IMG/VR virus record: IMGVR_UViG_2974628344_000001
Coordinates: 60,329 to 124,328 of that record
Direction: 5' to 3' (one strand)
Length of the DNA stretch: 64,000 nt
DNA from: Streptomyces virus Wollford
Taxonomy: Duplodnaviria > Heunggongvirae > Uroviricota > Caudoviricetes
How positions within the stretch are numbered: the first letter of the stretch is position 1; every line of letters starts with the position of its first letter. The notes under the pieces were generated by a model. It saw only the letters and a program-made list of their open reading frames with translations. It ran no database searches and was not told the DNA's origin. Positions 40,135-64,000 of the stretch are shown one piece after another. The position numbers and the translations under genes are program-made.

Positions 40135-40339
40135 CGTAAGCCCTTCGGGGCTCTAGGGGATGTAATGGTTTCGACTGGCGCGGATAGCTTTAGTTTGCAG
40201 CCTGACATTGAGGAAATGTCATTAAAAAGCCTCAAACAAATAAATGCCAACTCTAACGTTGCATCTGCCTACGCCCTAGCGGCGTGATGGCCGGGCGGCA
40301 ACTGCCTAGGAACAGAAAGTTGCGAATGTTTGGCCCGGT

Positions 40340-40434
40340 GGGGATAAACACACTGTACAACCTGCTTGACACATGGCTGTGTATAGACTACTGTTAGATT
40401 CGTCAGGACGCGGGTTCGACTCCCGCCATCTCCA
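40340..40434 (+). tRNA. tRNA-like element (T-arm gcgggTTCGACTcccgc), about 95 nt if closed by ggggata/catctcc
   Basis: canonical T-arm 40410-40426; 5' boundary and anticodon unresolved. Confidence 0.25.
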
Positions 40435-40447
40435 CTTAAGGATCATC

Positions 40448-47747: not shown

Positions 47748-47820
47748 GCGCTTGTAGGCAAATGGCAAAGCCACTGGACTTAAAATCCGGAGTATGAGAG
47801 TTCGAATCTCTCCAGGCGCA
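47748..47820 (+). tRNA. tRNA-Leu (UAA), short variable arm
   Basis: acceptor gcgcttg/caggcgc, stem ctgga/tccgg, loop cuUAAaa, T-arm gagagTTCGAATctctc. Confidence 0.65.
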
Positions 47821-47821
47821 C

Positions 47822-59887: not shown

Positions 59888-60266
59888 GGATGCTGCCGCA
59901 GTAGTAGAAAGAATTACTGCGGCACTCAATCAGATTGCCGAATCCTTTGAGAGACTAAGTCTCATTGAAGCTTCTTTTGCAGATATAAGGGAGGTGATGG
60001 AAACGGCAGTGGATATCAGACACAATGAATATCCTATGAGAGACGGCTATGGAACCTATTGGTATGATCCAAGTGGATTCCATGCTGACTCTGAGGGCGA
60101 ATGCTTTATGTGCAAGAATCTGACAAGCAGAATTGATATTGACTATCATGGCTACTTCTGCGACTCACATGATTGCAATGAGGCAGTCAGAAAGGAGTTG
60201 GAGCGCCTTAACGGTGGTCCAGAGGAAACAGATGAAAATCGGAATAGAAGTCAGAACGATCAATAA
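59832..60266 (+). CDS. hypothetical Cys/His-rich protein
   Basis: 144-aa ORF; FMCKN...HGYFCDSHDCN. Confidence 0.4.
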   Translation: MFLSFWRIARTVPSSQENEDAAAVVERITAALNQIAESFERLSLIEASFADIREVMETAVDIRHNEYPMRDGYGTYWYDPSGFHADSEGECFMCKNLTSRIDIDYHGYFCDSHDCNEAVRKELERLNGGPEETDENRNRSQNDQ

Positions 60267-60459
60267 GACTTCTTACTACTCAGATCTTCTAGACATGTCT
60301 GGCAAGACTGAGGAGGAGATTGCCACGATCATCAGCGATATTGAATCAATTCTTGATGGGGTGGCGAGTGACAGCGGTCTTACTATTTTGATGGACGGCA
60401 GAAGGTATGCCTTCCCGCCTAGTGCAATCGAATATGCAACAACATACGAGGCTGATTGA
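60234..60459 (+). CDS. hypothetical protein
   Basis: MKIGIEVRTINKTSYYS...; internal Met of track ORF 60133. Confidence 0.3.
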
Positions 60460-60485
60460 CAAAACCATATGTTCTGATCTAGCAT
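60456..60485 (+). promoter_or_regulatory. promoter TTGACA-N18-TAGCAT
   Basis: recurrent family. Confidence 0.3.
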
Positions 60486-60494
60486 GAGAACATT

Positions 60495-60731
60495 ATGAGA
60501 TATACAATCGTAAAGGAGCCTCTTAAAAGAGGTAGAACGGTGGAAGGCTACAACTGGTGCATCCTTGATACTAAGGTCAACAGAGTAGTCTTTCGCCATT
60601 CTAATGAATTCAAAGCTGAGTTCATCAAAGACACCTTCAATGACGCAAATGTAAGCAGTCGATTCGAGTATGAATTGCCAGGCGATGAAACCATTGAAGA
60701 CCTAGATGATTCAGCATTTCAAGGGGAATGA
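60495..60731 (+). CDS. hypothetical protein
   Basis: 78-aa ORF. Confidence 0.4.
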   Translation: MRYTIVKEPLKRGRTVEGYNWCILDTKVNRVVFRHSNEFKAEFIKDTFNDANVSSRFEYELPGDETIEDLDDSAFQGE

Positions 60732-61010
60732 ATGCTGGAGAAATTGGCCTGGCGATATTTGGCCCGGCGCATGGAAGTCCATCGTAAGTCTGGTAGACAC
60801 CATGAAGCAGACCATATAAGAGCAGCACTAGCAACCCAAATACAGAAGCAGTGTGCGCTTTGCTGCGTATTGGAGAATACAGACTGGCTGGCATGGGCAA
60901 CACGTTTTGATCCAACAGCCAATGAATGCAAGGACAACGAGCTATATGCAAGTATTGTTGCAGATGAATCCCGGTTTGGAGATGTGGTTCGGAGAAGTGG
61001 TCTGGACTGA
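60732..61010 (+). CDS. hypothetical protein
   Basis: 92-aa ORF; last + strand gene before repeat tract. Confidence 0.4.
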   Translation: MLEKLAWRYLARRMEVHRKSGRHHEADHIRAALATQIQKQCALCCVLENTDWLAWATRFDPTANECKDNELYASIVADESRFGDVVRRSGLD

Positions 61011-61079
61011 CGAATGGGATTGGGATGAAGAGGACCGGCTTAGTGCTGGTCCTTTCCCATTTTATTGAACATGTTCAAA

Positions 61080-61150
61080 TTCCATAGATTTTTAGTCAGT
61101 GGCCGATTTTTTAGTCACGACATGATCCAATAGATTTTTAGTCACAAAAC
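61080..61150. repeat. three direct repeats AGATTTTTAGTCA(C)
   Basis: tccatagatttttagtcagtggccgattttttagtcacgacatgatccaatagatttttagtcacaaaacg. Confidence 0.6.
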
Positions 61151-61169
61151 GCCCGGCGGCTAGAGTTCC

Positions 61170-62045
61170 TTGTATCATATAAGACTCATAGACATAACCA
61201 TATAAGACAGACTAAACAGAAAGCCCTACAAGCCCTTGTAATAAAGAAGGCATAGTCAGAGACACCAATCATTTAAAGCATTGTGAGAAGTGAACGTAGG
61301 CATGCTAGTGGCCTTGTTGAGAGCACTATATAAGACGTGTTCATAGTGGATAGAAGAAGGAAGTGTCAACCAATGGTTGTCAACTTATCCACAGCCTGTG
61401 GATAACTTTCTGAGATTCACATTTAATCTTCTATTGATACACTAACTAAAAGATAGTGTGTAATGATTGGGGTAATTGAACGCGTTCAAAAAGCACATTT
61501 CCTTACATTCATAGGTAAGAAGGGGGTTCCAGCCTTAGAATCACAGCCAAAATAGCCAGCCAGCCTAATAAACTATGGATTCAAGGGCATAATGGGCCTC
61601 TAAAAACCAGCAAAAATAGCCCCAAAACCTATGAAATCTGTCAATAATCGGCCCAAATCCTTAGAAAACACGGCATTTCTGCACATTTTTGGATGCATTC
61701 GTAAAGGGCATGCCAGATAGACCTTAGAATCATAGCTATGCATGCCTATTTTGCCTTCGATTCGTAAGTCAGCCCACTATGACAGCCAAAGTATGCAGCC
61801 ATGCTATACAGCCTGAGTATCTGATTGAATATTCAGACAAGACATGTTGGTTGTAGTCTTATATGGGGAATTAAAGCCCGGTGGGTATATATGCTTTGTT
61901 CTATGTCTTATATAGAAGGACACCTAACACCACCGGCCAACAATCTCTCCTTGTCCTATGTCTTATATCGTAAAACAGAAGAAGCCTCCCAAAAGCGGGA
62001 GGCTTTGTTTGCTTTCAGCTTGGATATGTCTTATATAAGACAGCA
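61170..62045. repeat. dispersed short repeats (TCTTATAT/ATATAAGAC at least 7 copies; CCTTAGAATCA 3 copies; CATTCGTAAA 4 copies) in ORF-poor tract
   Basis: tatgtcttatata at 61900, 61960, 62020; atataagac at 61182, 61204, 61327; ccttagaatca at 61532, 61715; cattcgtaaa at 61697, 62097, 62144. Confidence 0.55.
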
Positions 62046-62383
62046 GCAATAAATGATCTTCAATTCTAATTGGTAAATCGCCCGGGTTTTCAGGCTCATT
62101 CGTAAAGACGCTTGATCAAATATCGCTGGGAAATTTTGGACTCATTCGTAAACGGGAAAAATTCGGACATGATGGGTCAAATCAAAATATAGATGTACAG
62201 TGATGATGTTAGTTAGGGTAGGTAATGAACCGGGGCGGTCATCTTCGATGACATTGAAAGGTTCCTGGGCTGCTGCCGACCATCAGCTATTTAACCCCTT
62301 GCCCGACTGGACTGATAGGGGGCCCAGGAACACACCTTACTACCCTACTACAATAGTGTAACAAGGCAGTCGCTCTGTGTCAA

Positions 62384-62587
62384 TCACCACTCAAGTTCGT
62401 TCTGCACACAGTAGTGAGAGACGAAGGGGACTACCCACTGCTCATTGAGCAACGATCCCTTGACGGGAAGGACAAGGACACGGTCCTTGGAGTTGAACTC
62501 CATTCGATCTCCGTCGATGTTCTCGAAGATCAGTTCGGCTCGACGGTCATCCTCAAGCACGATGACAGTAATGCGCTTAGAAGCCAT
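62384..62587 (-). CDS. hypothetical protein (minus strand)
   Basis: 67-aa ORF; first of the minus-strand, higher-GC block. Confidence 0.4.
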   Translation of the reverse strand: MASKRITVIVLEDDRRAELIFENIDGDRMEFNSKDRVLVLPVKGSLLNEQWVVPFVSHYCVQNELEW

Positions 62588-62695
62588 TAGGTTCCTTCCC
62601 TAGTTGCTTGATACTAGTCTAACAGAGTAGAAGGGGAGTGTCTACCACCGGGCCAAAATAACCGGGGCGGCTAGCGGGCTTTCGCCCGCTGCCTG

Positions 62696-62845
62696 TCAGT
62701 CCTCTTCGCCAAGATCCTTCAACTTGGCAGTTGCTACCTCGTAGACACCCTTCCAGGGCTCGTAGTAGTCCTTGGGCTTCCTGTTGCCCATCGCAACCTG
62801 ACACGAAGCACGAATCAGGCGAAGCTGTTCTACGGTGAACTCCAT
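62696..62845 (-). CDS. hypothetical small protein (minus strand)
   Basis: 49-aa ORF not in track: MEFTVEQLRLIRASCQVAMGNRKPKDYYEPWKGVYEVATAKLKDLGEED. Confidence 0.35.
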   Translation of the reverse strand: MEFTVEQLRLIRASCQVAMGNRKPKDYYEPWKGVYEVATAKLKDLGEED

Positions 62846-62954
62846 GTTTCCTCCTTGGCTGGTAATCAGAGTCTATCAGAACGACACGAGGGTGTCTAGC
62901 CTTTTTCTATTTGACCGGGGCGGCCAAAAGGGCCCCCGAAGGGGCCCTAGTGAC

Positions 62955-63956
62955 TCAGGCAGCCAGAGCCAGACTCAGCACTGCCTTACGGATCTTGTTC
63001 TTGTCAGAGTTGGTGACCGGGTCGAAACCACTCGCCGCAGCGAACAGGTTATCCACGTTGCCGTTACGCGGCATACGGTACCAGTCCAGACGCTCCGTCA
63101 TGGCATTCAGCGCACCGGCCATCGTGCCAGCCAGAGACAGAGTGGTCTTGGGACCGTCACCAGTGTCGGTGAAGATGCCCATGAGCAGGTCACGCTTGTT
63201 GTCCCACTTGACCTGAGAGCCCTTGACGTTCTCCTTGGGACGCTCGCCGTACACCATCTTGATCAGCTCATCGAACTGATTCTTGGTGCACTCAGTGCGG
63301 AACAGTTCGTTCATCTCGCGCTCGAACTCATCCGCGTAGGCGAAGGTGATGTTCAGCGCCTCCCGCGCGGCGGCCATGCGTCCCTCGATAGTCTGAGTGT
63401 GGCGCATCTTGAACGTCTGCTTCACACCGTTACGGAGTGCGAAATTCAGCGTGTTCTGACACACGACACGGACCGGAGTGACACTCGCCTGAACCGCGAG
63501 AGAACCGTCGTGGGAGGTGTTGACCAGCAGATACATGTTGGTCACGTCGGAGTCACCAACCAGAACCTCTCGGCCGATACGCAGAGATCCGAAGACCTGC
63601 GTACCTTCCTTGATAGAACCGGCAGTCTCCCACGTTCCACCACCCGCGAGGATACCGTCACCAAAGGCGAACAGCTCCTCATTCTGCACCACCTTGTACC
63701 GCTCCGCCACGATGCCGAGGCTGTCAGCCTCCTGATCGAACGGGTTGGTACGGATCACCTCGAACATGTTCTTGGAGGTGCGTCCCTTGCGCTCCAGCGG
63801 CTCCAGTCGGACGTTCCAGTCGGACAGGTGGGCCAGACGAAGCATCTCGGAGGTGGTGAGTTCACCTTCGAAGACGGTGCCGAGGTTGTGCCACGCAGGC
63901 TCCAGACGAGAAGCGAACGCGACCTGACCACGGGTACCGATTTCAAGACCGTGCAT
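62955..63956 (-). CDS. DUF932-like phage/plasmid-related protein
   Basis: N-terminal MHGLEIGTRGQVAFASRLEPAWHNLGTVF...LSDWNVRLEPL resembles TIGR03299/DUF932 N-terminus; + strand ORF 62835..63968 is its antisense shadow. Confidence 0.5.
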   Translation of the reverse strand: MHGLEIGTRGQVAFASRLEPAWHNLGTVFEGELTTSEMLRLAHLSDWNVRLEPLERKGRTSKNMFEVIRTNPFDQEADSLGIVAERYKVVQNEELFAFGDGILAGGGTWETAGSIKEGTQVFGSLRIGREVLVGDSDVTNMYLLVNTSHDGSLAVQASVTPVRVVCQNTLNFALRNGVKQTFKMRHTQTIEGRMAAAREALNITFAYADEFEREMNELFRTECTKNQFDELIKMVYGERPKENVKGSQVKWDNKRDLLMGIFTDTGDGPKTTLSLAGTMAGALNAMTERLDWYRMPRNGNVDNLFAAASGFDPVTNSDKNKIRKAVLSLALAA

Positions 63957-64000
63957 TTGTACTCCTAGTGTAGGTGTTTCTTCTAGCTTACTTGCACGGA

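Follow-up and report, generated by a model that had tools for sequence, protein, structure and literature searches.

An untranslated, repeat-dense region at the edge of the direct terminal repeat of Streptomyces phage Wofford and its probable part in the formation of genome ends

An untranslated tract across the edge of the terminal repeat

The DNA analysed here, hereafter the window, is a stretch of 64,000 nucleotides from the Streptomyces phage Wofford, and the element under study is a repeat-dense tract near its right end, which lies between the convergently oriented genes 258 and 259. Positions 60000-64000 of the window are 100% identical to the Wofford record (NC_048722.1/MH576968.1), a linear sequence of 133,007 bp from a virulent siphovirus of the genus Karimacvirus (actinophage subcluster BE2); window positions are converted to genome positions by the addition of 60328. 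A first-pass annotation, made from the sequence alone, had stated that the tract contains no convincing open reading frame (ORF), that the coding strand switches to minus immediately after it and that the base composition becomes richer in GC. All three observations were confirmed: gene 258 (plus strand) ends at 61010 and gene 259 (minus strand) occupies 62384-62587, RefSeq annotates nothing between the two, the ORFs within 61070-62383 are no longer than 75 aa, the gene block that starts at 62384 is read leftward, and the GC content rises from ~0.40 (61000-62200) to 0.52-0.59 (62200-64000). The minus-strand gene at 62955-63956, suspected to be DUF932-like, is a DUF932 gene by Pfam (E = 4e-49). 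A protein-coding tract was rejected, as the small ORFs called by other annotators in relatives of Wofford are not common to these phages and the alignment of the tract has many gaps.

The tract straddles the left edge of the right-hand copy of a direct terminal repeat (DTR) of 11,214 bp, the two copies of which (genome 1-11214 and 121794-133007) differ by 0 mismatches and carry duplicated gene lists. Genome base 1, where the record opens with ATTGGGGTAATTGAACG, corresponds to window position 61466, so that the physical left end of the genome falls inside the tract. The DTR boundary between 61465 and 61466 divides the tract into 396 bp of unique DNA (61070-61465) and the first 918 bp of the right-hand DTR copy, which occupies 61466-64000 and continues past the end of the window.

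Sequence comparison places the physical left end of the packaged DNA at this boundary, directly after an invariant TGTGTAAT(G/A). In an alignment of nine BE2 (Karimacvirus) phages (alignment A1), all nine records begin at one column, right after the invariant TAGTGTGTAATG; in Wofford this 12-mer lies at 61454-61465 on the plus strand, occurs once in the window and has the predicted left end directly 3' to it. Despite the fixed start column, approximately the first 50 bp inside the DTR are among the most variable positions of the alignment. Wider comparisons added three Samistivirus (BE1) phages and Tomas, 13 phages in all. For the BE1 phages Mildred21, NootNoot and Peebs, the published DTR lengths (PMC5764925) set the ends after TGTGTAAT(G/A) as well, and the left end thus follows this motif in 12 phages of two genera; in Tomas, which represents a third genus, the comparison covered the motif alone, which is present. 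The published ends derive from read starts and twofold coverage: read-start pile-ups delimited terminal repeats of ~11 kb in BE1 phages (PMC5764925), and for the BE2 phage MindFlayer a DTR of 12,198 bp was reported (PMC10690885), a value that was reproduced exactly when the repeat was recomputed. A metagenomic contig of 122,403 bp (L033; IMGVR_UViG_3300048917_000027), approximately a genome length minus one DTR, contains the whole tract without interruption at 550-2150, with its elements in the same order as in Wofford.

The right end of the DTR also falls into a single alignment column (5/5 BE2 phages), between ...GCGAAGCATGTAT and C(A/G)TACA. It is situated inside a small palindrome, ATGTAT-C ATACAT, with the boundary directly after ATGTAT, and invariant blocks, GGTATGCGAAGCATGTAT and AAAATTACTAACATTTC, flank the palindrome (genome 11200-11230). 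The first-pass annotation had listed a genome terminus or a cos/pac region among its proposals. The former is borne out by the position of base 1 at the left edge of the DTR; a cos or headful pac terminus is ruled out by the exact 11.2-kb redundancy with fixed ends, which are redundant and fixed and neither cohesive nor permuted. A multi-kb repeat at both ends, with fixed, conserved and non-permuted ends, is what was found, as in long-DTR genomes of the T5/SPO1 type.

Beyond the alignments, when the tract was compared with 50,697 phage records by a distant BLAST search, matches were obtained in 86 Streptomyces phages only. Across the nine BE2 genomes, identity over the tract amounts to 72-78%.

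Short-repeat families and a DnaA-box-like pair around the cut

As judged from the aligned sequences, three phage genera have several families of short repeats to the left and right of the cut, at constant distances from it. Short repeats had already been noted in the tract; the counts against expectation show that they exceed chance, with small corrections to the sequences and copy numbers first given. On the left, three direct repeats (61086-61144, plus strand) share the core TTTTTAGTCA, with copies at 61089, 61108 and 61135 (-377 to -331 from the cut), where 0.10 would be expected in the window. These are the three iteron-like repeats of the first-pass annotation; the shared core holds for all three, and the longer 13-mer AGATTTTTAGTCA given for them is exact only twice, the middle copy reading CGATTTTTTAGTCA. 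The cores are invariant in the nine BE2 phages and their flanks diverge; in BE1 phages, Tomas and the metagenomic relative, two or three copies occur at -410 to -300 from the cut. Two extra copies, at genome 9265 and 9294, stand on either side of an early promoter of the DTR. At this second locus (genome 9263-9370) the two copies bracket one CCGGGGCGG, a DTR motif treated below, upstream of the promoter of gene 20, and beside the pair stands a long hairpin containing CTAAGAATCATAGG, which resembles the CCTTAGAATCATAGC repeat of the tract.

The second family, R (ATATAAGAC), has nine members in the window versus 0.35 expected, eight of which lie in the tract within 870 bp; outside the tract, the whole 133-kb genome holds one site only, at genome 78192. 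Its orientation is opposite on the two sides of the cut. Plus-strand copies to the left (61176-61336) lie at 61177, 61200 and 61328 (-288, -265 and -137), the third being specific to Wofford and Elmer. The minus-strand copies to the right (61856-62041), which read GTCTTATAT on the top strand, lie at 61856, 61905, 61960 and 62028 (+390 to +562) around a putative bidirectional terminator; they are invariant in the nine BE2 phages, and the one at 62028 makes a palindrome with a plus-strand copy at 62033. BE1 phages carry C[CT]ATATACA in place of ATATAAGAC at these positions, in plus orientation at about -300 and mostly in minus orientation at about +475 to +555. The layout common to both lineages consists of plus copies at -340 to -260, found in every relative, and mostly minus copies at +380 to +560, with one plus copy per lineage among them. 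All copies of family R change together while position and orientation are kept, a pattern of sites co-evolving with a binding protein, which argues against drift or chance.

Further repeats are located inside the DTR. Units of ~22 nt, TTTTGGAnnCATTCGTAAAnGG (61687-62155, plus strand), begin at 61687, 62088 and 62134 and contain CATTCGTAAA (3 in the tract versus 0.09 expected); shorter [AT]TCGTAAA copies occur at 61760 and 61967, and in all genera four to six plus-strand repeats of the CATTCGTAAA type are distributed over +212 to +710. Just inside the DTR (61533-61806, plus strand), direct repeats of CCTTAGAATCAyAGC are found at 61533 and 61722 and ACAGCCAAAaTAgCC-like repeats at 61540, 61604 and 61779; a block here, CAGATAGACCTTAGAATCATAG, is invariant in the nine phages. 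The spacing of the repeats is irregular (19 and 27 nt; 49, 55 and 68 nt). In five BE2 relatives, TomSawyer (L012:503-1045), Wipeout, CeilingFan, KentuckyRacer and Enygma, the tract includes an HNH/endonuclease VII gene. In TomSawyer, the sole one aligned, this gene lies between the second and third TTTTTAGTCA copies, with an extra copy of the motif at the end of the insert, and looks like a homing insertion, by analogy with T5, where such a gene lies between repeat regions 1 and 2.

Two sequences were discarded as parts of the conserved machinery. TTGAACATGTTCAA (61065-61078) and TTGAACGCGTTCAA (61476-61489) are perfect 14-bp palindromes and the only two such sites in the genome; they are limited to Wofford and Elmer and are replaced together in the other BE2 phages, which places them outside this machinery.

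A stoperator-like cluster of repressor sites and a junction to another replicon or to host DNA had also been proposed for the tract, and short asymmetric repeats and the step in GC content are the evidence on which either could draw. However, stoperators, as known from cluster A mycobacteriophages, are many asymmetric sites scattered over the genome of a temperate phage. Eight of the nine sites of family R are confined to 870 bp and not dispersed over the genome, and the phages of the BE cluster are reported to be virulent and to possess neither repressor nor integrase (PMC10690885). A foreign junction is refuted: both sides belong to one phage genome, the flanks are contiguous in the 86 related phage records, and the GC step is a shift in GC content at third codon positions (GC3) within phage genes. 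Both proposals are rejected as extremely improbable.

Between the left-hand repeats and the cut lies an inverted pair of DnaA-box consensus sequences, TTATCCACA gcc TGTGGATAA (61385-61405), separated by a 3-nt spacer. The box preferred by Streptomyces DnaA is TTGTCCACA. The inverted boxes TTATCCACAgccTGTGGATAA stand at -81 and -69 from the cut, and the distance is closely kept: the reverse box is 69 bp from the cut in the nine Karimacvirus phages, which show no indels from box to cut when aligned, 71 bp in the three Samistivirus phages and, by manual count, at -71 in L033. The pair is kept in 12/13 aligned phages and in L033, 58-94 bp outside the DTR; in Tomas, the DnaA-like box is absent. The last 60 bp before the cut consist of 63-73% A+T. 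Altogether, TTATCCACA occurs five times in the window versus 0.56 expected; the other three sites (12285, 18846 and 48548) are single and in unrelated contexts, one 5 nt before a tRNA-Gly gene, one forming the palindrome TTATCCACAGTGGATA and one overlapping a start codon.

The box pair bears on the first-pass proposal of a replication origin with iterons: DnaA-box consensus sequences adjoin an A+T-rich stretch and direct repeats lie near, as in oriC and iteron origins. Host DnaA or a phage initiator would occupy the boxes and the iteron-like repeats, melting the adjacent A+T-rich stretch so that the DnaB-like helicase of the phage could be loaded; the phage also encodes a primase, a single-stranded DNA-binding protein and a DnaE-like polymerase. 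The box pair is conserved, GC content is at its lowest (38%) in the unique DNA of the tract, and the zone 61065-61980 may be untranscribed, since it lies between terminator-like sites. Several features speak against an origin: the cumulative GC skew has its maximum at the tract (121 kb) and its minimum at a divergent switch at ~18 kb; the genes on both sides are transcribed toward the tract, so that outgoing forks would meet transcription head-on in both arms; the flanking genes have no Pfam match and no initiator gene adjoins; the repeats are unevenly spaced, and one genus, represented by Tomas, can dispense with the boxes. Moreover, a helper-dependent satellite without a replicase carries none of the motifs of the tract (PMC10690885), and the similar boxes of T5 are not at the T5 origin (10.1101/866236). 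An origin at this site is therefore disfavoured and considered unlikely.

Terminators, a promoter and a structured RNA

By sequence, the transcription units on the two sides both point toward the tract, one rightward and the other leftward, and terminator-like hairpins occur at two places. The predicted intrinsic terminator of the rightward gene block (61029-61065, plus strand) consists of an 11-pair stem (61029-55) followed by a T run, and compensatory changes in LukeCage (GGACTACC/GGTAGTCC; alignment A1) preserve the hairpin. The second hairpin (61981-62006), GAAGCCTCCC...GGGAGGCTT, has T runs on both strands and is presumably a bidirectional intrinsic terminator; Yaboi and Stanimal show the compensatory change CTGCC/GGCAG. 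A promoter-like site, TTCACA-N16-TACACT (61416-61443, plus strand), points across the cut and is loosely conserved; it is a weak candidate only, because the scan gave four such sites in the region versus 3.3 expected.

On the minus strand, covariation and promoter conservation mark 62252-62383 as a predicted small structured RNA gene with its own promoter. This sigma-70-type promoter, TTGACA-N17-TACACT (62355-62383, minus strand), agrees with the consensus at 10/12 positions and has a TG before the second hexamer; in all 13 phages TTGACA, the 17-nt spacing and TACACT or TAACAT are kept and the spacer sequence diverges. The transcript probably extends from ~62348 to the terminator near 61982. 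Its predicted structured core of 85 nt (62252-62336, minus strand) comprises a 10-bp closing helix round two arms (RNAalifold). The covariance model R1 scores 109.8 bits at this interval and yields 16 matches with 15 distinct sequences; each of the sampled BE-like phages has it once in a DTR, and the controls, whether slid or shuffled, all have much lower scores. In the RNA alignment 99.7% of cells are paired, and 9/23 pairs have compensatory changes on both sides; L033 contributes additional compensatory changes. The strand assignment is consistent with one invariant U-G pair and several further U-G pairs that are possible on the minus strand only, and with fold z-scores of -2.77 (minus strand) versus -1.34 (plus strand). 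A pattern scan of IMG/VR found the core in BE-like contigs only. Rfam gave no match at 62252-62336 at gathering score or E <= 10, and over the whole tract only chance-level, terminator-like matches at these thresholds; with its covariation, this RNA makes a clean candidate for a new family of phage RNAs. Gene 259 (62384-62587, minus strand), which has the sequence of gene 1 and is the last of the leftward DTR gene block, follows upstream of the RNA promoter and has a promoter of its own, TAGACA-N17-TAGACT, predicted at 62644-62616.

These elements suit a mainly transcriptional explanation, in which the tract is a zone of convergent termination and the repeats are operators of a phage regulator and non-coding RNA motifs without any role in DNA ends. 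The two terminators, the conserved promoter and the covarying RNA would all be accounted for; TTTTTAGTCA also flanks an early promoter inside the DTR, and the CATTCGTAAA copies at 62097 and 62143 fall within the predicted RNA transcript. Yet the R and TTTTTAGTCA arrays of the tract lie between the terminators, away from strong promoters, and the cut site sits amid the arrays at a fixed distance in three genera. An explanation by transcription without a role in DNA ends is thus improbable, although transcriptional functions can coexist with a function in the formation of genome ends.

A probable role in the formation of genome ends and related phage systems

With moderate confidence, we regard the tract as a conserved untranslated cis-acting region for terminus generation and packaging, which straddles the left edge of the right-hand DTR copy. 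It could act in the following manner: In replicating concatemers, neighbouring genomes would share one DTR copy, and the tract would be the site where the packaging machinery recognises the concatemer and makes a genome end. The arrays of TTTTTAGTCA, of family R, with its opposite orientation on either side, and of CATTCGTAAA may bind a phage protein, for example a small-terminase-like factor, which would position a nuclease that cuts after TGTGTAATG. The box pair, situated 69-71 bp upstream of the cut and separated from it by the A+T-rich spacer, may assist in DNA opening; in the manner of the T7 model, it may also serve to prime the synthesis by which the repeat is duplicated. A packaging role of the repeats is something that we only infer.

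Several findings weigh against this assignment. For Wofford itself, the ends are taken from the deposited record and from the method that was published for the cluster; the repeat families are spread over ~950 bp, much more than a classical pac or cos site occupies; and the left and right DTR boundaries are without a robust common motif (nine shared 8-mers versus ~4.7 expected, none kept in relatives), so that a single recognition rule for the two cuts is not evident. ACTAACTA, the sole shared motif at similar distances from both boundaries, was rejected as the recognition motif for both, as it is not conserved in relatives. No terminase gene was located with the one candidate that was tried: a 579-aa protein encoded upstream of the portal gene was likewise rejected, since Pfam gives only Laminin_G_3, a lectin-like fold. 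Finally, the BE2 helper-dependent satellite MiniFlayer contains none of four tract motifs above chance, a result that says nothing about packaging, since this satellite possesses a terminase of its own.

The sole plus-strand gene of the DTR encodes an HNH endonuclease (genome 10566-11027, duplicated at 132359-132820) and ends ~190 bp before the right DTR boundary. HNH endonucleases take part in end cutting in HK97-type phages. In 5/5 BE2 phages the gene is kept near this boundary, and by analogy its product could be part of the end-cutting machinery.

Arrangements with some of these properties occur in other phages. The concatemer junction of T7 and T3, which Dunn & Studier in 1983 and Chung & Hinkle in 1990 are said to have described, reportedly has a terminal repeat flanked by short-repeat arrays and promoters. 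The Wofford tract shares with it fixed, non-permuted ends made by sequence-specific cutting, short-repeat arrays beside a terminal repeat that is duplicated, and promoters near the junction. However, the T7 repeat is 160 bp long versus 11.2 kb in Wofford, T7 has its own RNA polymerase, and there is no sequence relationship. In the pac site of P1 (4 + 3 hexamers), in pacL/pacR of SPP1 and in the R sites of lambda cosB, clusters of short repeats bind the small terminase subunit. As in these systems, the cut site of Wofford is bracketed by short-repeat clusters; the former extend over 100-300 bp and serve headful packaging or cohesive ends, whereas in Wofford the arrays occupy ~950 bp and the ends are exact direct repeats.

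The strand switch and the rise in GC content at the right of the tract mark the start of a DTR gene module that uses GC-ending codons. In 23 DTR genes, counted over genome 919-11027, GC3 amounts to 72% (74% in the HNH gene) versus 42-43% in the other genes, and GC1 and GC2 are similar. In its coding part, the DTR has 55% GC versus 46.4% in unique DNA, and the value is back to 45% immediately past the right DTR boundary. As the difference lies almost wholly at third codon positions, it characterises a codon-usage module and not foreign DNA. The DTR genes are transcribed inward from the right end. Each DTR copy contains 17 occurrences of the motif CCGGGGCGG (window 62230, 62662 and 62915; genome 765-10582); one more lies just outside, and the rest of the genome has none. 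In the three cases examined, the motif stands upstream of a promoter of a small DTR gene, with the form TAGACA-N17-TAGACT or TTGCAA-N17-TAGACT. These small genes with host-type promoters are probably early genes that are read by host tRNAs before the tRNA set of the phage is expressed. A long terminal repeat full of small early genes, each with a host-type promoter, is also a feature of SPO1, the terminal redundancy and host-takeover module of which is cited for comparison in PMC5764925; there is no homology between the two.

The closest described system is the Repeat Region 3 or injection stop region of T5, which the Wofford tract resembles by analogy and without any claim of family membership. 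In T5, this region is untranslated, repeat-rich and 1.2-1.66 kb long; it is located at the inner end of a ~10-kb terminal repeat, overruns 270 bp into unique DNA and contains paired DnaA boxes, of which TTATCCACA is the commonest, and some relatives have an HNH gene between repeat regions (10.1101/866236). Correspondingly, the Wofford tract is an untranslated, repeat-dense region of >1 kb at the inner DTR border that reaches into unique DNA; it has paired boxes of the TTATCCACA type and, in some relatives, an HNH gene inserted among the repeats, and at least part of the region is better conserved than the adjoining gene of the terminal repeat. The differences are that Wofford has a single inverted pair outside the repeat as opposed to eight T5 boxes inside, that its region is without sequence homology to T5 and contains a mapped cut site, and that the host is Gram-positive.

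This likeness raises a further explanation, a checkpoint of DNA entry as in T5: the right end would enter first, the early genes of the DTR would be expressed, and transfer would pause at the repeat-dense inner DTR edge, where host DnaA bound to the membrane could, for example, hold the box pair, and would resume once early proteins release it. The topology mirrors that of T5 as given by Davison (bioRxiv 10.1101/866236): in Wofford, 918 bp of the tract belong to the DTR and 396 bp to unique DNA, the two TTATCCACA boxes are 3 nt apart, and five relatives have the HNH insertion; the DTR genes, which are small, have host-type promoters and a host-like GC3 and are transcribed inward from the right end, would fit as well. 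On the other hand, the role of DnaA is only a hypothesis even for T5, and two-step transfer, which in T5 depends on the pre-early proteins A1/A2, is not known to occur in these phages; the boxes of Wofford are found outside the DTR and those of T5 inside, Tomas does without them, and the tract has no sequence homology to T5 and matches Streptomyces phages only. The checkpoint is therefore seen as unlikely. More speculative, and improbable to us, is an extended form in which the tract would do in an actinophage family unrelated to T5 what the injection stop does in T5: once the early module with its adapted codons has entered, the incoming DNA would halt at an array anchored by host DnaA, the same site would later be cut for packaging, and the conserved 85-nt RNA would represent a new class of phage regulatory RNA connected with this switch.

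The DTR and its ends are already public. The accessible literature gave no description for BE phages of the conserved motif at the cut, of the arrays that change in concert, of the fixed distance from box to cut, of the RNA or of the split in GC3, and the conserved architecture of the tract and the RNA seem to be undescribed. Under the favoured assignment to terminus generation and packaging, the tract bears on a question that is still to be settled, namely how phages with ~10-kb terminal repeats recognise and cut two different boundaries; the role of repeat-dense untranslated boundary regions has been an open issue for T5 for >50 years. Because dozens of sequenced relatives combine a conserved cut with concerted arrays and a fixed box distance, site-swap and binding experiments should be straightforward. 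The GC3 split (72% versus 42%) suggests a logic of timing, with early genes relying on host tRNAs and later genes on the 44 tRNAs of the phage itself.

A tRNA/tmRNA gene set has been described for the BE cluster (PMC5764925). In the window, 43 genes for tRNAs and one for a tmRNA (40156-40437), all on the plus strand, are distributed over 12298-56876. Among them, the tRNA-Leu(UAA) at 47748-47821 reads TTA, a rare codon in Streptomyces.

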